A stretch of 64,000 nt of DNA, from the IMG/VR virus record IMGVR_UViG_638275429_000001, positions 23,740 to 87,739 of that record; one strand, written 5' to 3'. The stretch is from a virus. Lineage: Duplodnaviria; Heunggongvirae; Uroviricota; Caudoviricetes; Straboviridae. Position numbers and translations under genes: made by a program. The notes under the pieces were generated by a model. That model did not search any database. It saw only the letters and a list, made by a program, of their open reading frames with translations, and was not told the DNA's origin. Each line of letters opens with the position of its first letter. Position 1 is the stretch's first letter. Positions 10,325 to 33,380 of the stretch are shown here, one piece after another.

Positions 10325-10370
10325 ATTTGATGGGAATATTTTATCACACTCTGATGTCATTGTAAACTGT
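10325..10370 (-). promoter_or_regulatory. PeSL-type early promoter/stem-loop cassette (degenerate copy)
   Basis: tttgatggg...cattgtaaac motif; minus-strand GTTTAC -35-like box. Confidence 0.45.
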
Positions 10371-24711: not shown

Positions 24712-25806
24712 TTAAATGCCAGTGAAACGAGATATAATTTCAGCGTGATCATCGAACATACGCGCTCTGTTCTTTTTGTAGATGTGCATAGGCATCCAGA
24801 ACGCAGCTTTGGCATCGTCGTCAGCATTAACAGCCGGCAATTCACCGTTTGGGCCAGGACTGAGAACAATGTAATACGCAACAGTTGGCTTGCAGAATTC
24901 CGCGGTGCGCTTCGGGTGATCGAAAACTTCGTGCGCTTTGATAGAACCGATGATATCTTTTTCTTTGACCTCGATCTTGACTTCCTCAAAAAGTTCACGA
25001 ACAGCACATTGTTGGAAGGTCTCGTTCGCGTTCTTATGGCCACCGGGAAGGGCTAAAGCGTCTTTGCCAGGAGCATGCTTCCGCTCAATGAGCAAAATGT
25101 GGTTATTGCAGGTTACCACAGCATCAGCAGTATTGCAATTCAGAGCTTCGCGATATGGGTAATTCTCGAACTTCGCGAGTTCGTTATCCCACATTTTGCG
25201 CTCTTCCATCAAGCGGTCGCGGAGTTCGCGACCTTCAGTGTTCCAATATACGGAAAGGAAAGATCGCACTGTTGGGTTAATCGGGAATGCGCCGTTGATT
25301 ACGCCAGTTCGAAGAAACTCGTCGCGCATTGGGGTGTTTGAAATATCCGCCCCGTGGTTTTGAACACCCATACATTGAATATGATCCCAGCCGAAAGAGC
25401 GAATCCAATAAGAATCAGCATCTTTATCATAAGCCACCATTGCGACTTTTTCGCCAGCCTTTTCGCCAGCCTGTTCGCGAACTTCCGCCTGCCAACGATC
25501 TTCGTTGTACCGGTAATCCGGTACGTTGCCGAAAGTTACGCGTTTTTGCTCATATGGAGTCAAGTTCTCAGACATCCATTCCTTGAACATTCTAACGCGA
25601 ACCAGCGTAGGCAATGGGTTAATTGTGTTTGGGTAGCAATGAGATGAGCCAAAAACAACAGCTACGTTTTCGGCTGTCTGCAATGCTTTGTAGATAAGCA
25701 TTTCATGACCACGATGGAAAAAGCTGGAAAAACGACCAATTACTACAGCACGATCATAATCATAAGTCATATCATTAACCCCGATTTTTGTAACTGTTGA
25801 TTGCAA
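24712..25806 (-). CDS. natV: bifunctional NMN adenylyltransferase / Nudix hydrolase NatV (NadM-like)
   Basis: 364 aa; [11 protein letters not shown] (GxFxxxHxGH cytidylyltransferase motif) and Nudix box [26 protein letters not shown]. Confidence 0.85.
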
Positions 25807-28441: not shown

Positions 28442-28756
28442 TTATTTAGATGCTTTCCGAGGACCCTGTTCTTTCCAACACTTCATAAATCGCGTGAAAT
28501 ATGCCGGGATACTATTACACAAAGCCGCGATAAATGCATGATAAGCCTCTGGTGATTCAAAAAGACTAGAGTCGATTTGCTCAGTGTATCGCCCATACGT
28601 GTCGATGTTTTTCTGCATAGCCTTAGCGACTGGATGTCCTTGGCCATACGCGAAACCCATAACAGTCGATGGATTGCTTTGCCAGCTATTTAGGTCCATA
28701 AGAACCTCTTGGGCGGCAAATTCCAATTCCTCTACCATTTCAGATGTGACTTGCAA
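28442..28756 (-). CDS. hypothetical protein (104 aa)
   Basis: ORF. Confidence 0.4.
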   Translation of the reverse strand: MQVTSEMVEELEFAAQEVLMDLNSWQSNPSTVMGFAYGQGHPVAKAMQKNIDTYGRYTEQIDSSLFESPEAYHAFIAALCNSIPAYFTRFMKCWKEQGPRKASK

Positions 28757-28952
28757 ATCCTAGCTCCTTCATTATGTCTTTGACAATTATCGACACTTGT
28801 TGTGTTTCAATGCCGAATTCGTGGTTAAAAACCGCCGGAATTTCGGTTTCGGCTAAATGAATTAGACCGTTTAAACAGAAATCTTCAAATAGTGCGGCCA
28901 CTGCGGGCCGCAAAGTTTCTGGTCTACCTATGATATAACGAGGGTATTCCAT
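28740..28952 (-). CDS. hypothetical protein (70 aa)
   Basis: ORF. Confidence 0.4.
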   Translation of the reverse strand: MEYPRYIIGRPETLRPAVAALFEDFCLNGLIHLAETEIPAVFNHEFGIETQQVSIIVKDIMKELGFASHI

Positions 28953-30160
28953 CAGTTTTCCACCACATGCGGAATAAATCGGGAGTTATTGCCAGTGATT
29001 CGACCATCGTCTTCACGAATACCCAAACCAACAGCATCATCGCCTACCATCCAAACACCGATCATTGGGTAGCAACCATCAAATTCCTGCCACTCAATGT
29101 ACTCTTGAACAATCCGAGGCTCTTCCGCGTAATTGCCATCTGTTGATTCGCTTTCTCCACCATATTCGAAAATATGGACATTACTACCTTCGCGAGAAAG
29201 GAGTGGTTTTGATACCCATTTCGGATTTTCGAATGTAAACAGATTCAGTCGGTCGAAATCATCTTCTTCATATGCAGGGACCAACCATTTGCAATTAGGA
29301 TAACGCTCATAAAGCAGAACCAAGAGTGCTTTATTGGACAGCATCATTTTCCAGGCCGGTTCGATGAACCGTGTACCAGATTTATGAGCATATGCTCCGA
29401 ATTCGTCTTCCATCATCCATTCCCAAGGATAAAGCTTGAAGCAATATTCCATCAGGCGATCTTGTTGATCGTAAAAACGGCCGGCGTCCGACATTTGAAT
29501 TTCGCTGATGTCAAAAACGTTTACCGGAATACCTGCTTCAGCTGCGGTCTCACCGATATAGGCGATAGTCGCGAAATCATCTACTTGTGAGGTGGCAACA
29601 ATGTTAAGGCACCCGTTCAACCCGTTCAACTTCTTCATGTCAGCCCAATGATTCACCAATGACTCATGTATCTCATTGAACTGGTAGTGGTTCGGGAAAT
29701 TATTTTGAGTGAACCAGTTCCACTGTGAAATTGAAGACTCGATGAGAATAGTCGGCGTATCAGCATTGTACTCGAGCATTTTCGGGCCGTCTTTAGTCAT
29801 GATGAAATCGAAGCGACCATAGAAACCCCATTCGTCAGCACTCCAGGAATCGATTATCATCTGTCGGGCATTTTCGGGAATGTTGAACATATCCCAAACC
29901 CGAAGCCGCTGAGCAAATGATGCTTCTTCAAAGAACCAACGAAGTGTGTCGATACACATGCCGTGGAGGGTATTTGCGGCCAACTCCAGCTCTTGTTGTT
30001 CGGCCTTGGTGAATGAATAATAAACCGGCTTCGCCATTGCCTCGGACCAATATGGACCTTCTTCGGTGGTGGTCCACAAGACGCCTTCAGATGTCAATTG
30101 CGGCAACCAATCTTTACGTGCTTCGATAGATAAACGTTTCATTACACTGCCTCCAGGCAC
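28952..30160 (-). CDS. glutathionylspermidine-synthase-like ATP-grasp protein (GspS/YgiC family)
   Basis: 402 aa; LEYNADTPT motif characteristic of GSP_synth family. Confidence 0.5.
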   Translation of the reverse strand: MPGGSVMKRLSIEARKDWLPQLTSEGVLWTTTEEGPYWSEAMAKPVYYSFTKAEQQELELAANTLHGMCIDTLRWFFEEASFAQRLRVWDMFNIPENARQMIIDSWSADEWGFYGRFDFIMTKDGPKMLEYNADTPTILIESSISQWNWFTQNNFPNHYQFNEIHESLVNHWADMKKLNGLNGCLNIVATSQVDDFATIAYIGETAAEAGIPVNVFDISEIQMSDAGRFYDQQDRLMEYCFKLYPWEWMMEDEFGAYAHKSGTRFIEPAWKMMLSNKALLVLLYERYPNCKWLVPAYEEDDFDRLNLFTFENPKWVSKPLLSREGSNVHIFEYGGESESTDGNYAEEPRIVQEYIEWQEFDGCYPMIGVWMVGDDAVGLGIREDDGRITGNNSRFIPHVVEN

Positions 30161-30372
30161 ATTTCAACTTTTTCCCAGTATTCTTGTAAGGTATATGGAC
30201 CTTCGAACATAAGAATTCCGTTATATGGGTTTCCATTATCGTCAATTGAAATATCCATGGAATGAGCACCGTATCGACCGATTTTGGATATTTCAATAAT
30301 GTCACCAACTTTGGCGATATGACATTTATTTATCGGTTTGGTGATTCGATATTTTTGCCCGATATAAATCAT
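30142..30372 (-). CDS. hypothetical protein (76 aa)
   Basis: ORF. Confidence 0.4.
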   Translation of the reverse strand: MIYIGQKYRITKPINKCHIAKVGDIIEISKIGRYGAHSMDISIDDNGNPYNGILMFEGPYTLQEYWEKVEMCLEAV

Positions 30373-30381
30373 GATATTTCC

Positions 30382-30570
30382 TTACGAAAAATAATACGAG
30401 TTGTGCAAACCATGTCCGTTCGCATATCGACGTGCTTCTTCATAGCCGATAACATTTGAAAGCATACGGAAAGTTGTTTTGCGATCGAGGTCATCGGCAC
30501 ACCATTTCAGGTTTTCAAGAAACTTAGCTTTCGCCTCGATACCTTTTTCGCTATCAATTTCAAAAATCAT
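30382..30570 (-). CDS. hypothetical protein (62 aa)
   Basis: directly downstream of PeSL copy; CCAAGGAGTAATTT-ATG. Confidence 0.45.
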   Translation of the reverse strand: MIFEIDSEKGIEAKAKFLENLKWCADDLDRKTTFRMLSNVIGYEEARRYANGHGLHNSYYFS

Positions 30571-30588
30571 AAATTACTCCTTGGCAGA

Positions 30589-30630
30589 TTTGATGGGACC
30601 ATAGTAAACCATAGTCCCATCGTTGTAAAC
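30589..30630 (-). promoter_or_regulatory. PeSL early promoter/stem-loop cassette (canonical copy)
   Basis: tttgatgggaccatagtaaaccatagtcccatcgttgtaaac. Confidence 0.6.
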
Positions 30631-30644
30631 TACTTTTTCAAAAA

Positions 30645-31253
30645 TTAACCGCCAGATGAACCGAAACTGCCGGATTTACCAAAACCACCTTTGGAAGAAA
30701 ATGATGGTTTACTTGACGGAGATGGCTTGGAAAAGCTTCCCGGTGTTTTCGGCGCTGAGAAGGTGTTGGCACCAACTGAACCCTTGGCGGGAGGAACGTA
30801 AGCGCCGCCAGAAGTAACGAACCCGTTTTTGCGATCTTCGGGACGAGCAGGTGCATATACTGGCATCGGGCGACTGTTGTTTGACATCATTTGACCAACG
30901 ATCATGCCAACCATAGCTGGAACAAAAACATCACTGAAACTGCCGTCACTGTTTTGGATCTGTGTGCGATTGCAAATTGCTTCGGTGCCAGATTCACAGG
31001 ATGCTTGATCGTTGAACTTTGGGGCACTGTCAATATGTTCCATTTTAGCCTTGTCGAAGGCTGACTGGCATTGTTCCAGTGAACCGCCGCCCAGTTCTGC
31101 GCATTGTTGAGCCGAAACAGCAGTTACAGTTGGGGTTGCTTCACCGCCGAGACCATTGTAGGTGAAGGTATCATCCGTATTTGCTTGGCCGCAACCGGAA
31201 AGAGCTGCTGATACGAATGCTGCCATTATACCCATTTTAAGTTGTTTTTGCAT
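30645..31253 (-). CDS. lipoprotein with Gly/Ser-rich C-terminal tail (202 aa)
   Basis: lipobox AALSGC after signal peptide; C-terminal SGS/GGF low-complexity region. Confidence 0.55.
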   Translation of the reverse strand: MQKQLKMGIMAAFVSAALSGCGQANTDDTFTYNGLGGEATPTVTAVSAQQCAELGGGSLEQCQSAFDKAKMEHIDSAPKFNDQASCESGTEAICNRTQIQNSDGSFSDVFVPAMVGMIVGQMMSNNSRPMPVYAPARPEDRKNGFVTSGGAYVPPAKGSVGANTFSAPKTPGSFSKPSPSSKPSFSSKGGFGKSGSFGSSGG

Positions 31254-31257
31254 TTAA

Positions 31258-31476
31258 TTAATCCTCGATTTTAAAAGAACCAGCATTCACTGGAGTTTTA
31301 CGACAAACCAGAACTTCTTCACCAGCTGGAGTAAGCGCAGTTGCCATGCCGTTAGGGCAAGCGCGTTCGACTGGATTGTATATCTCATTGCTCGAAAAAG
31401 CAGGAATCGCGATCGCAGCGAGTATAGCAATAATCACAACAACGATCATAAGTTCGATCAGTGTAAAACCTTTCAT
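31258..31476 (-). CDS. type IV pilin / pseudopilin-like protein (72 aa) with class III (prepilin peptidase) signal
   Basis: MKGFTLIELMIVVVIIAILAAIAIPAF = canonical G-F-T-L-I-E N-methylation/cleavage motif plus hydrophobic alpha1 helix. Confidence 0.65.
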   Translation of the reverse strand: MKGFTLIELMIVVVIIAILAAIAIPAFSSNEIYNPVERACPNGMATALTPAGEEVLVCRKTPVNAGSFKIED

Positions 31477-31490
31477 AATATGTTTCCTAT

Positions 31491-31521
31491 CAGATTACTA
31501 AATGGGCTCCCGAAGGAGCCC
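31491..31521 (-). terminator. GC hairpin (GGGCTCCCGAAGGAGCCC) between SPFH and pilin-like genes
   Basis: hairpin + ATTTAGTAAT on minus strand; weak U-tract, may be attenuator. Confidence 0.4.
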
Positions 31522-31529
31522 AGGTTGGA

Positions 31530-32453
31530 TTACTTGGAACGCATGTCCATCAGCATCTGGCCATCGTAACCAGCACCTACGACAGTCTGCGGTACACCAC
31601 CTTGATACTTGTTGGCGCGAATCATTTCAACTTCCAGCTGACGCCATTTGATCATTTCAGGGGTGATAGTTTTCTGCAACAGGGAGTTAGCTTCGGCTTC
31701 TTTACCAGCAGCGTACAGCTTGGCATCAGCATCTCGCTCGTTGGCTACAGCGTTCTGTTCGCGAGCTTCTCGTGCGGCCTCGGCAGTCTTAACTTGTTGC
31801 TGGGCAACCTTTTCAGCCTTGTCCAGGTCAGCTTGCGCTTGGTTTACCGCTTCTTCACGGATTTTGGTTTGCTCAACTTGATCTTGGATCAGCTTAGGCA
31901 GAGTGATTTCCTGCAGGAAAACTTCAACGACTTCGTAACCAAACGGCTTGGAATATTCGTTAACCTCGGATTTGATCAGCTCTTGAAGCATGGATTGTGT
32001 GGTTGCATCACCGAACAGATCTTGAGCTTTCTTGATGTTTTTGCCGGATTCGCGGACAGTACTTTCAAATTTCTTTGCAACGTACTTGTCGATAGCTTGT
32101 CGCTCGGTACCGCCATTGATACGGACAGCCTGCGCCTTGTCACCGTCGAATCGCAACATCAGGGTGATATCTACTGAAGTTTTCAGTTTATCCTGAGAAG
32201 GAACTTGAACGTTGGTGAATTCCATCTTCAGATCGCGAGTTGAATAAGTATCAACAGAAGCCAGAGGGTTGATGACGTTCAAACCAGGTTGCATGATGTT
32301 CGGACTTACTTTACCCAGGAAAGTGGTTGTTGCGACAGAGCCGTCATCAACTACCGCGAAAACGTTTGCTGCGATGATGATTGCACCGGCTACGGCAGCG
32401 CCGATCAGGGTTTGTTTCTTGGTCAGTTTCGGCATTTTGGATTGGTTACGCAT
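31530..32453 (-). CDS. SPFH/Band-7 (HflK/C-, prohibitin-like) membrane protein (307 aa)
   Basis: N-terminal TM segment then SPFH core and long Ala/Glu/Gln-rich coiled-coil. Confidence 0.6.
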   Translation of the reverse strand: MRNQSKMPKLTKKQTLIGAAVAGAIIIAANVFAVVDDGSVATTTFLGKVSPNIMQPGLNVINPLASVDTYSTRDLKMEFTNVQVPSQDKLKTSVDITLMLRFDGDKAQAVRINGGTERQAIDKYVAKKFESTVRESGKNIKKAQDLFGDATTQSMLQELIKSEVNEYSKPFGYEVVEVFLQEITLPKLIQDQVEQTKIREEAVNQAQADLDKAEKVAQQQVKTAEAAREAREQNAVANERDADAKLYAAGKEAEANSLLQKTITPEMIKWRQLEVEMIRANKYQGGVPQTVVGAGYDGQMLMDMRSK

Positions 32454-32468
32454 AGTATTTTCCTTAAA

Positions 32469-32732
32469 TTATGGCTTGGCAGTTACGGTGATTACGGATT
32501 CATTTCGGAATGAGTCAGATTTGGCATCATAACCGAGGCTTCGTAGATAATCTACAATATCTTTTGGCATTATGGCCGGGAATTTGGCAACGTCGAAAGA
32601 TATTTTAAACGATCGTTGGCGTATCATCTCGTCGGCGACAAATTTGCCAACGGGAGCGAGTTTGCGTTTAAGTTCTTCGGTGGCAAATTGCTGGGCCATG
32701 AGTACTTGTGCATAAACATCTGAACTTTTCAT
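32469..32732 (-). CDS. hypothetical protein (87 aa)
   Basis: downstream of PeSL variant 32750-32792. Confidence 0.4.
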   Translation of the reverse strand: MKSSDVYAQVLMAQQFATEELKRKLAPVGKFVADEMIRQRSFKISFDVAKFPAIMPKDIVDYLRSLGYDAKSDSFRNESVITVTAKP

Positions 32733-32749
32733 AATGTTTTTCTCATTTG

Positions 32750-32792
32750 GTTTAACATGAGGCTATTCTATACAAAACAGCCTCATTGTAAA
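32750..32792 (-). promoter_or_regulatory. PeSL-type cassette (variant, gaggctattcta...cagcctcattgtaaac)
   Basis: hairpin + GTTTAC box. Confidence 0.45.
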
Positions 32793-32804
32793 CAACTTTT
32801 TAAT

Positions 32805-33380
32805 TTATTTTTGAATTTTGCCTTCTTTCCAATGGCGACGACAGACCGATATGAAACGGTCATTGCCTCCGATTGAAACACGAGGACCCCAAATCTTTTC
32901 ACCATGTTCATTCATTCGCATGGTCATTGTTGCTTTCTTACCACACCAACAGATAGTCTCATGCTCAACTTTTCGTTCGGCCAATACTAAAAGCTCCGCT
33001 GATGCAGGGAAAAGATGCCCATTTGAGTCAGACAATAAGCCGTAGCACATAACAGGCACATTGATGTAGTCTACAACATCACCTAACTGATGAACCTGAT
33101 CAACCGTGAGGAACTGAGCTTCATCAACGAGAATGCAGTCAATTCCATCTAGCTCGATCAGTTTTTCGCAAAAGGCTTTAAGGTTATCGTCTTGGCTGAT
33201 CATATGCGCTTTTTGCGATATGCCGATACGCGAAGAAACATTATCGCCGTCACGGGTATCAATCGCTGGCTTAAGAATAAGCGGCTTCATGTTCCGCTCC
33301 ATGTAGTTGTACGCTACCTGAAGCAAGTGAGTTGATTTACCTGAATTCATAGCAGCATAATGGAAGTGCAATTTCGCCAT
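32805..33380 (-). CDS. tk: thymidine kinase
   Basis: 191 aa; MAKLHFHYAAMNSGKSTHLLQ (P-loop) and C-terminal zinc-binding cysteines; matches T4 Tk N-terminus. Confidence 0.9.
   Translation of the reverse strand: MAKLHFHYAAMNSGKSTHLLQVAYNYMERNMKPLILKPAIDTRDGDNVSSRIGISQKAHMISQDDNLKAFCEKLIELDGIDCILVDEAQFLTVDQVHQLGDVVDYINVPVMCYGLLSDSNGHLFPASAELLVLAERKVEHETICWCGKKATMTMRMNEHGEKIWGPRVSIGGNDRFISVCRRHWKEGKIQK

Follow-up and report, generated by a model that had tools for sequence, protein, structure and literature searches.

A Truncated Prepilin-Like Protein of Aeromonas Phage 44RR2.8t and Its Facultative Association With SPFH Genes in Unrelated Lineages

The window analyzed in this study, a stretch of 64,000 nucleotides from the IMG/VR virus record IMGVR_UViG_638275429_000001 (window position equals record position minus 23739), contains three consecutive minus-strand genes that encode an SPFH-domain protein, a mini prepilin-like protein (hereinafter mini-pilin), and a lipoprotein. 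Window positions 28900–32800 are 100% identical to Aeromonas phage 44RR2.8t (NC_005135; Straboviridae, Biquartavirus), in which these genes are ST44RRORF096c–098c and lie in the variable (hyperplastic) region between rI and tk. An earlier note on this DNA had delineated the three open reading frames (ORFs), which we confirmed at 307, 72, and 202 amino acids (aa), and had interpreted them as a single envelope module, possibly for pilus-targeted superinfection exclusion. Judged from its family matches, the 72-aa product is a genuine class-III-signal (prepilin-type) protein, and the association of such pilin-like genes with SPFH genes is real but facultative. The lipoprotein is probably part of a different gene pair, and the locus as a whole is probably a mosaic of early, envelope-directed accessory genes rather than one three-gene machine.

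Results and Discussion

Sequence and Structure of the Mini-Pilin

The mini-pilin gene ORF097c (31258–31476, minus strand, 72 aa) encodes a protein that begins with MKG followed by FTLIELMIVVVIIAILAAIAIPAF (reading MKG-FTLIELMIVVV...), that is, with a 3-aa leader, glycine at position -1, phenylalanine at +1, and glutamate at +5. The class III signal claimed for it from these residues is borne out by two family models, namely Pfam N_methyl PF07963 (E 6.4e-8, 32.3 bits vs. a cut-off of 21.2) and TIGR02532 IV_pilin_GFxxxE (35.9 bits vs. 16.3). The AlphaFold2 model of ORF097c, with a mean predicted local distance difference test (pLDDT) score of 74, contains the hydrophobic α1-N helix at residues 6–27 (pLDDT block means 77–89), a short second helix, and a β-hairpin formed by strands 44–48 and 54–58. 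Two invariant cysteines, C40 and C58, flank this hairpin in the short predicted periplasmic part; they are candidates for a disulfide and for a counterpart of the C-terminal D-region loop of type IVa pilins. The mature protein, after the predicted cut between G and F, would comprise 69 aa with the single β-hairpin and has no globular α-β pilin domain; ORF097c is therefore a truncated 'mini' pilin and not a complete pilin.

Among solved structures, the best sequence matches of ORF097c are the truncated Geobacter PilA-N and type IVa pilins. None of the named pilin/pseudopilin equivalogs (NCBIfam PpdD, GspG, GspH, ComGC, and PilA) reached its cut-off, and the equivalog matches span residues 2–36 only (e.g., PpdD, 39.9 vs. 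138; GspG, 30.9 vs. 88.9). Past residues 1–30, which represent the generic N-terminus, ORF097c has no detectable similarity to FimU or any pilin.

Relatives of the Mini-Pilin in Aeromonas Phages

Apart from those on a few uncultured contigs, the full-length relatives of the mini-pilin that we found all belong to Aeromonas T4-like phages (38 records, one of them the 'Stenotrophomonas' phage IME13). They are 60–79% identical across genera, with the motif residues and both cysteines invariant; the residues G-1, F+1, T, L, I, E+5, and L do not vary among 13 relatives, including the long forms described below.

Two further architectures share the prepilin segment. The first, a 151-aa form present in 11 phage records (UP87, AS4, Asfd_1, AhFM11, and others), has a 79-aa N-terminal domain before an intact G-F site, so that the 'leader' is 79 aa long rather than short. 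Its upstream start has a strong ribosome-binding site and an ATG, with no start codon near G-F. The 79-aa domain belongs to no Pfam or PHROG family and has no homologue in 5.8 billion proteins, being confined to the same 11 phage records. The second architecture is represented by ORFs of 27–31 aa located between nrdB and nrdD in Aeh1, Ah1, phiAS5, and PX29, which belong to three other genera. These micro-ORFs consist of the leader and α1-N only, without a periplasmic domain (e.g., MKGFTLIELIVVVAILGILFSVVAPAIF); they are kept across phages and stay open across genera despite sequence divergence. The conservation of the mini-pilin, the long forms, and the micro-ORFs thus identifies the prepilin N-terminus as the part common to the Aeromonas T4-like lineages (five genera), and these comparisons point to the N-terminal prepilin segment as the predicted seat of mini-pilin function. 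The prepilin N-terminus is the part recognized by prepilin peptidase and used in subunit-subunit packing.

Association of SPFH and Pilin-Like Genes

An IMG/VR scan for the signature [KRN]GFTLIEL, in which the best 80 loci were kept, revealed an SPFH gene as the immediate neighbor of the class-III-signal gene in five of the 80 loci, and these represent four unrelated lineages (L010/L011, L012, L039, and L051). L010 and L011 are two phage-25-like genomes. In L012 (5026–6483), the gene after SPFH encodes a 165-aa class-III-signal protein; in L039, where the SPFH protein is a lipoprotein, it encodes a 61-aa mini-pilin with two cysteines; and in L051 the gene order is reversed, with a 55-aa mini-pilin preceding an SPFH protein that is a singleton. 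Between the four lineages, SPFH identity is 19–30%, and the C-termini of the pilins bear no relation to one another. When the SPFH share of phage genes (~740 of 3.3 million) is taken as the probability that a neighboring gene is SPFH, the chance expectation is 0.04–0.2 SPFH-adjacent loci (Poisson P ~6e-8 to 6e-5).

The link between SPFH and pilin proposed in the earlier note was therefore upheld in part: adjacency recurs in four unrelated lineages, but SPFH genes mostly occur without a pilin. The candidate rule that SPFH usually comes with a pilin was rejected, since it held in none of 80 metagenomic SPFH loci. Among 51 IMG/VR SPFH loci, a pilin stands beside SPFH only in the L039 contig and in the two phage-25-like genomes; no prepilin-like ORF was found beside SPFH in representatives of T5-like, Vi01-like, Klebsiella/Cronobacter/Pantoea T4-like, and Salmonella 7-11-like phages; and in Aeh1 the SPFH gene and the prepilin micro-ORF are far apart.

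The SPFH Protein Family

The product of ORF098c (31530–32453, minus strand, 307 aa) is an SPFH/Band_7 (prohibitin-like) protein, as had been proposed, with matches to Pfam Band_7 PF01145 (E 1.4e-15, 58.2 bits vs. a cut-off of 23.6) and phrog_200 (E 5e-72). It has a basic N-terminus, a single hydrophobic/transmembrane helix at residues 17–35, and no cysteine, and its SPFH domain should be periplasmic. Homologues were detected by tblastn in 740 phage records, with identities to the 44RR protein of >90% in Aeromonas T4-like phages, ~65% in T5-like Demerecviridae, and 57–60% in Klebsiella/Cronobacter/Pantoea T4-like and Salmonella 7-11-like phages. On this distribution, SPFH is an independent, widespread stand-alone phage gene.

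ORF098c matches prohibitin and QmcA only at a marginal level (E 2e-3 to 1e-2). The phage protein resembles the SPFH scaffolds (prohibitin, HflK/C, and QmcA) and the T5.080-type proteins of T5-like phages, the latter ~65% identical to it, in the Band_7 domain, the N-terminal membrane anchor, and the long C-terminal helical region; it differs from the SPFH scaffold systems in that no FtsH- or NfeD-type partner is encoded nearby. We know of no function assigned to any phage SPFH protein.

RefSeq and PHROG (phrog_200) name the whole SPFH family 'lipoprotein', a label that the earlier note overlooked on this cysteine-free protein. Because the 44RR SPFH protein has no cysteine and hence no lipobox, the label is wrong for ORF098c. 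A lipobox is present in a divergent SPFH branch comprising Vi01-like phages and contig L039 (5082–5912); the 44RR/T5-type proteins are cysteine-free and held by a transmembrane anchor, and the lipobox is found only in the Vi01/L039-type branch. Just upstream of the lipoprotein-type SPFH gene, most members of that branch, and of that branch alone, carry a conserved ORF of 57–66 aa (~190–200 nt) with two predicted membrane segments (contigs L091–L096 and L039, e.g., L039 4878–5072). The arrangement recalls the stomatin-NfeD pairing, and the small ORF has no Pfam match. A general rule that a small membrane protein follows SPFH genes was rejected (5 of 36 non-redundant SPFH loci vs. 5 of 60 background genes). 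Other observations on SPFH loci concern their neighbors and integrity: a nicotinamide mononucleotide (NMN) adenylyltransferase gene (NadR/NUDIX-type) directly follows SPFH in T5-like and Cronobacter T4-like phages (L006 4025–5131, L007 3975–5042), the 44RR homologue of this gene, ORF083c (window ~24712–25770), lies ~6 kb from SPFH, and the SPFH gene is split in phage Asfd_1 (L005 2703–3628), which reflects either decay or a sequencing error.

Proposed Mechanism of the Mini-Pilin

Aeromonas produces Tap, Bfp/MSHA, and Flp pili, and its type II secretion depends on the prepilin peptidase TapD as well (PMC3658858). We propose, as a reading with an even chance of being correct, that the mini-pilin acts against the TapD-dependent pili and type II secretion of the host, either as a decoy substrate or as a poison subunit. 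Synthesized early, the protein would enter the inner membrane via its type IV prepilin signal, where the host prepilin peptidase/N-methylase TapD would recognize it. Because it has the α1 assembly helix with E5 but no globular domain, the mini-pilin would compete for TapD or enter the filament machines and, being unable to be extended there, stall them. The machines jammed in this manner would be the Tap type IVa pilus, the MSHA/Bfp pilus, and the Exe type II secretion pseudopilus, with the effect beginning within minutes of infection. The most plausible pay-off would be the exclusion of pilus-dependent competitor phages, with host secretion shutdown as an alternative. The SPFH protein would act as a prohibitin-like inner-membrane scaffold that, in a few lineages including this one, may act together with the class-III-signal protein, e.g., by corralling it or its targets. 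We infer TapD cleavage, interference with pili and type II secretion, and SPFH-pilin contact from sequence features.

Several observations weigh against this proposal, in addition to the prevalence of SPFH genes without a pilin neighbor described above. The AlphaFold2 model of ORF097c had no match with E <= 0.001 in a fold search against the PDB, although a 72-residue helix plus hairpin is too small for such a search to be informative. The 79-aa folded leader of the long forms is atypical for prepilin peptidase substrates. The locus is also prone to loss: phages avDM5, avDM1, and avDM2, which are 96–99.9% identical to 44RR on both flanks, do not have window positions 28636–31367 and are viable, so the block is dispensable for growth in culture. 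This avDM5-type deletion of 2,732 bp, with ~9 bp of overlap at its junction, extends from ORF091c up to mini-pilin codon 36 and takes out the pilin C-terminus along with the lipoprotein gene, its ligase partner (see below), and flanking genes; at the junction, mini-pilin residues 1–36 run into the ORF091c tail, and the resulting 74-aa fusion ORF is annotated in avDM5 (L230 3385–3609). Such dispensability is as expected for an accessory competition or host-range function. Moreover, the periplasmic part of the mini-pilin, IYNP..ACPxG..TP.GEE(I/V)LVCRK, is almost invariant, which suggests a specific periplasmic binding function beyond that of a decoy. Finally, the periplasmic domain of the L012 protein (..PEKYAVVFKCQHGKF..) also occurs in three viral contigs (L315–L317), there behind lipoprotein signal peptides; for this domain, a prepilin-type signal and a lipoprotein signal seem able to replace each other as anchors, and this swap argues that class III signals can serve as plain membrane anchors.

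The last two points favor a different explanation, which we regard as rather unlikely but the best of the alternatives, namely that the class III signal does no more than anchor a small periplasmic effector, the Cys-bounded hairpin, and that the likeness to pilins is incidental. Possible targets of this effector include the periplasmic SPFH domain, peptidoglycan, or a component of lysis or lysis inhibition. The location of the gene would suit such a role, because it is near rI and other periplasm-acting early genes and adjoins the gene for a periplasm-facing SPFH protein. However, a plain anchor does not account for the glutamate at +5 within the membrane helix, nor for G-1/F+1 being invariant even where a long N-terminal domain makes a cleavable leader needless. 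In addition, the 27–31-aa ORFs of four other Aeromonas T4-like phages have no periplasmic domain to be anchored, and the avDM5-type phages have kept residues 1–36 fused to unrelated sequence.

A bolder form of the decoy proposal, which we consider unlikely, treats SPFH and the class-III-signal protein as a recurrent two-gene device. According to this scheme, five Aeromonas T4-like genera would target the host peptidase and pilin pool with fragments of 27–151 aa; in the strongest version, the periplasm-facing SPFH assembly would corral host prepilins or TapD with the mini-pilin as bait, and the 151-aa forms would release a 79-aa effector. The latter step has also been considered by itself: the host peptidase would free the 79-aa domain of the 151-aa forms as a cytoplasmic effector, and the 72-aa 44RR form would have lost it. 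The upstream start of the long forms and the intact G-F site in all 11 records agree with such a release, as does the basic stretch KARKSKR before the site, which is consistent with a cytoplasmic location. Nevertheless, the released domain would be an orphan without homologues, phages 44RR, 31, and 25 and the micro-ORF phages do without it, and we know of no precedent for prepilin peptidase processing of an 80-residue folded leader; we therefore hold this explanation to be improbable.

The DUF1190 Lipoprotein and Its Ligase Partner

The lipoprotein gene ORF096c (30645–31253, minus strand, 202 aa) encodes a DUF1190 (YgiB/YjfM-like) protein (Pfam PF06693, E 1.9e-21, 77.5 bits vs. a cut-off of 22). 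The LSGC lipobox and the Gly/Ser-rich tail reported previously are both present, the lipobox with its cysteine at position 21 and the tail as ...SKGGFGKSGSFGSSGG; in addition, the protein has four conserved cysteines, a hydrophobic VPAMVGMIVGQMM segment, and the C-terminal end ...GGFGKSGSFGSSGG. It is 27% identical to Escherichia coli YgiB and 24% identical to YjfM, and the alignment of the three proteins shares L-x-G-C, C51/C62/C86/C94, the hydrophobic segment, GGFG, and the terminal GG. The score against NCBIfam NF008655 is below the cut-off (45.7 vs. 223), so ORF096c is a member of the DUF1190 family and not a YgiB equivalog.

The probable partner of this lipoprotein is encoded by ORF093c (28952–30142, minus strand), a gene that the earlier note missed and that lies two small ORFs downstream of the lipoprotein gene. 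ORF093c matches PF03738 GSP_synth (E 3e-118, residues 21–400) and is 37% identical to YgiC and 32% identical to YjfC over the full length, and the match to the bifunctional GspSA is partial only. On these matches, it is a YgiC/YjfC-like ATP-grasp ligase with the GSP_synth domain only, without an amidase domain. RefSeq names YgiC and YjfC of E. coli peptide-spermidine ligases, and the function of the YgiB-YgiC-type pair is unexplained even in E. coli (PMC11762307). In 44RR2.8t, the ligase gene is 502 nt downstream of the lipoprotein gene, with ORF095c (30382–30570, minus strand, 62 aa; phrog_18483) and ORF094c (30142–30372, minus strand, 76 aa; phrog_9779), both of unassigned function, between them; in phage 25, the DUF1190 and ligase genes are parted only by a 210-nt spacer, and ygiB-ygiC and yjfM-yjfC of E. 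coli are adjacent gene pairs. Compared with the latter, the phage pair has the same domain pair and gene order, as well as the lipobox, the four cysteines, and GGFG...GG in common, but differs by the two intervening ORFs and an early promoter and by having no tolC or pspA-like neighbor.

The 80 bacterial loci most similar to the phage ligase, with the neighborhood checked within 3.5 kb, further support this assignment. A DUF1190 ORF ends at the ligase start in 31 of them, and none has SPFH within that distance. The DUF1190-ligase adjacency also occurs in the unrelated Aeromonas phages LAh_6/8/9 and 4_4572 and in Sinorhizobium phage Phosso. The two genes are also lost jointly: AhFM11 and GomatiRiver_11 have SPFH and the pilin but neither DUF1190 nor the ligase, and in Aes508 a single deletion affects both genes, running from DUF1190 into the ligase. 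DUF1190 was not detected in L012, L039, or L051. This co-occurrence and joint loss place the lipoprotein with the ligase and not with SPFH and the pilin; we conclude that DUF1190 and the ligase are probably a separate, horizontally acquired YgiB-YgiC-type pair with an envelope- or polyamine-related role. A recent host origin of the ligase was rejected, since the 80 best bacterial loci include no Aeromonas genome and come from diverse phyla at 35–42% identity.

These results bear directly on the single-module interpretation, in which SPFH, the pseudopilin, and the lipoprotein form one three-part system for pilus-targeted superinfection exclusion. The genes adjoin one another on one strand and share an early promoter, each of their products faces the periplasm or envelope, and Biquartavirus, Tulanevirus, and uncultured relatives have retained the order tk-ORF099-SPFH-pilin-DUF1190. 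However, a gene order conserved inside a single phage clade does not count as independent evidence, the partner of DUF1190 in bacteria and other phages is the ligase and no SPFH gene is close by, AhFM11 and GomatiRiver_11 dispense with the third member, and the other three lineages with SPFH-pilin adjacency do not have it. The three-part module is accordingly a poor prospect, and this part of the earlier interpretation is better abandoned.

Two side observations concern the pair itself. The phage DUF1190 protein ends in Gly-Gly (window 30645–30653), as do YgiB, YjfM, and 27 of 32 bacterial members with a directly adjoining GSP_synth-type ligase (loci in this comparison: L148:145-816, L149:2388-3026, and L234–L310). 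Given the Gly-Gly end and the neighboring peptide-spermidine ligase, the DUF1190 C-terminus could be a natural substrate of the ligase; a difficulty for this idea is that the lipoprotein is exported, whereas the ligase is cytoplasmic. In the uncultured relative L318 (5324–6521), the ligase is split into two ORFs by decay or a sequencing error.

Promoters, Hairpin, and Gene Turnover

The unit that contains the mini-pilin gene is headed by ORF099c (32469–32732, minus strand, 87 aa; phrog_9870), which has no predicted membrane segment and whose position upstream of SPFH is kept in Aeromonas relatives. An early-type promoter (32765–32793, minus strand; GTTTACA-N16-TAGAAT, with a stem GAGGCT..AGCCTC around the -10 box and a 10/12 match to the sigma-70 consensus) precedes the ORF099c-SPFH-mini-pilin-DUF1190 unit, and a second one (30601–30630, minus strand; GTTTACA-N17-TACTAT, with a stem around -10) precedes ORF095c-ORF094c-ligase. 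The pattern GTTTACN17-19TANNNT has 13 sites in the window, all on the minus strand, vs. 1.09 expected, two of which bracket the trio genes; this excess suggests that it represents an early promoter family of 44RR2.8t. The 13 sites span window positions 10338–48562 (e.g., 20843, 22771, 30601, 35565, and 48533), and five copies have the common core ATGATGGGACTATGG(A/T)TTAYTAT with a stem GGGAC..GTCCC around the -10 box.

The late-promoter consensus TATAAATA has no copy within 14 kb of the trio, the single copy in the window being 14 kb off. Early promoters in the absence of a nearby late site indicate that the trio genes are early, and late expression or a virion role was rejected on the same grounds. 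Such early timing speaks against a place in the virion and is in keeping with a function in host take-over or exclusion.

The hairpin noticed previously between the SPFH and mini-pilin genes (31504–31521, minus strand; GGGCUCC-UUCG-GGAGCCC with a UUCG tetraloop) was recovered in our analysis: the 59-nt spacer folds at -18.1 kcal/mol (z -2.46 vs. shuffled sequence), and the hairpin is kept in phages 25 and UP87. Terminator prediction did not call it, and with only 3–4 U after the stem it would be an RNA-stability element or a weak attenuator rather than a strong terminator. Other searches of the locus were negative: the PADLOC defense library had zero matches to the seven proteins, a scan of 28800–33000 found zero Rfam families, and no pilB/C/D-like genes were found at the 44RR2.8t locus by Pfam and the record annotation.

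Promoter/stem-loop cassettes have been tied to modular shuffling in other T4-like phages (PMC2839356, PMC4122927). The 44RR promoter family resembles these PeSL cassettes, and its promoter/stem units could explain cassette-like gene gain and loss in this phage. That the genes are hitch-hiking ORFans of the hyperplastic region with no selected function in 44RR2.8t, as such flanking cassettes and the frequent natural deletions or splits (avDM5/1/2, Aes508, IME13, AS-gz, the L318 ligase, and the Asfd_1 SPFH) might suggest, is very improbable given the cross-genus conservation of the mini-pilin motif and cysteines, the SPFH identities of >90% in Aeromonas phages and ~65% to T5-like phages, and the micro-ORFs that stay open across genera.

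Comparison With Known Systems

The claim that this gene trio had gone undescribed in T4-like phages was overstated. Pfam matches of 44RRORF093c, 097c, and 098c and of their Aeh1 equivalents were tabulated without comment by Nolan et al. (2006; PMC1524935), and the GenBank notes on Aeh1p044 and PX29 gp038 already read 'similar to N-terminal part of pilin'. Phage-encoded pilins, among them those of lytic phages, have been reported as well: prophage FimU-like pilins exclude pilus-tip phages, and virulent phages encode four groups of PilA-like proteins, one of ~60 residues, for which early superinfection exclusion was proposed (Sztanko et al., 2026, Cell Rep; PMC12952977). New here appear to be the breadth of the Aeromonas mini-pilin family with its long-leader and micro-ORF architectures, the recurrent SPFH adjacency, and the re-assignment of the lipoprotein to a YgiB-YgiC-type pair.

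The mini-pilin and the P-FimU/PilA-like pilins of Pseudomonas phages (PMC12952977) both have a phage-encoded prepilin signal without an assembly machinery of their own. The truncated PilA-like proteins of lytic Pseudomonas phages are closer still, since they are encoded by virulent phages, comprise approximately the N-terminal helix only, and have a proposed superinfection block, whereas P-FimU of the Pseudomonas F10-like prophages is full-length, built into a functional pilus, and encoded by temperate phages. The Aeromonas mini-pilin differs from the Pseudomonas phage pilins by its own conserved Cys-hairpin, the SPFH neighbor, the host, and the relatives with a 79-aa domain or of 27–31 aa.

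The best solved-structure match, Geobacter PilA-N (Geopilin domain 1, 61 residues; E 1.5e-8 to 3.7e-7), is comparable in having a mature length of ~60–70 residues dominated by α1. However, the similarity is limited to the N-terminal half, PilA-N works with a separate PilA-C and the cognate bacterial machinery, and the C-terminal Cys-bounded hairpin of the mini-pilin, with its putative disulfide, is absent from it. A functional analogy is offered by T4 Imm and Sp, early superinfection-exclusion proteins that act on DNA injection and gp5 lysozyme and not on pili. Like the mini-pilin as pictured here, they are small early products of a virulent T4-type phage, reside in the membrane or periplasm, and act on the envelope, but they have no sequence relationship to the mini-pilin, and the presumed targets differ. 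The same analogy was drawn for the Pseudomonas phage pilins (PMC12952977).

Implications

The re-assignment of the lipoprotein to a YgiB-YgiC-type pair helps annotation and marks phages as carriers of an unexplained bacterial gene pair. Hundreds of sequenced phages carry an SPFH gene (T5-like, Vi01-like, and many T4-like ones), and it is only lately that truncated pilin genes have come to notice in virulent phages. If the mini-pilin jams TapD-dependent machines, it would inhibit the type IV pili and type II secretion of a fish and human pathogen in a compact and transferable form, which would explain why each major Aeromonas T4-like lineage keeps some mini-pilin version, and the recurrent SPFH adjacency would offer a first experimental handle on phage SPFH proteins. 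Should SPFH and the class-III-signal protein indeed constitute a two-gene device, virulent phages would have a new way of taking over the biogenesis of type IV filaments and of type II secretion, and a phage SPFH protein would have been assigned a function for the first time.

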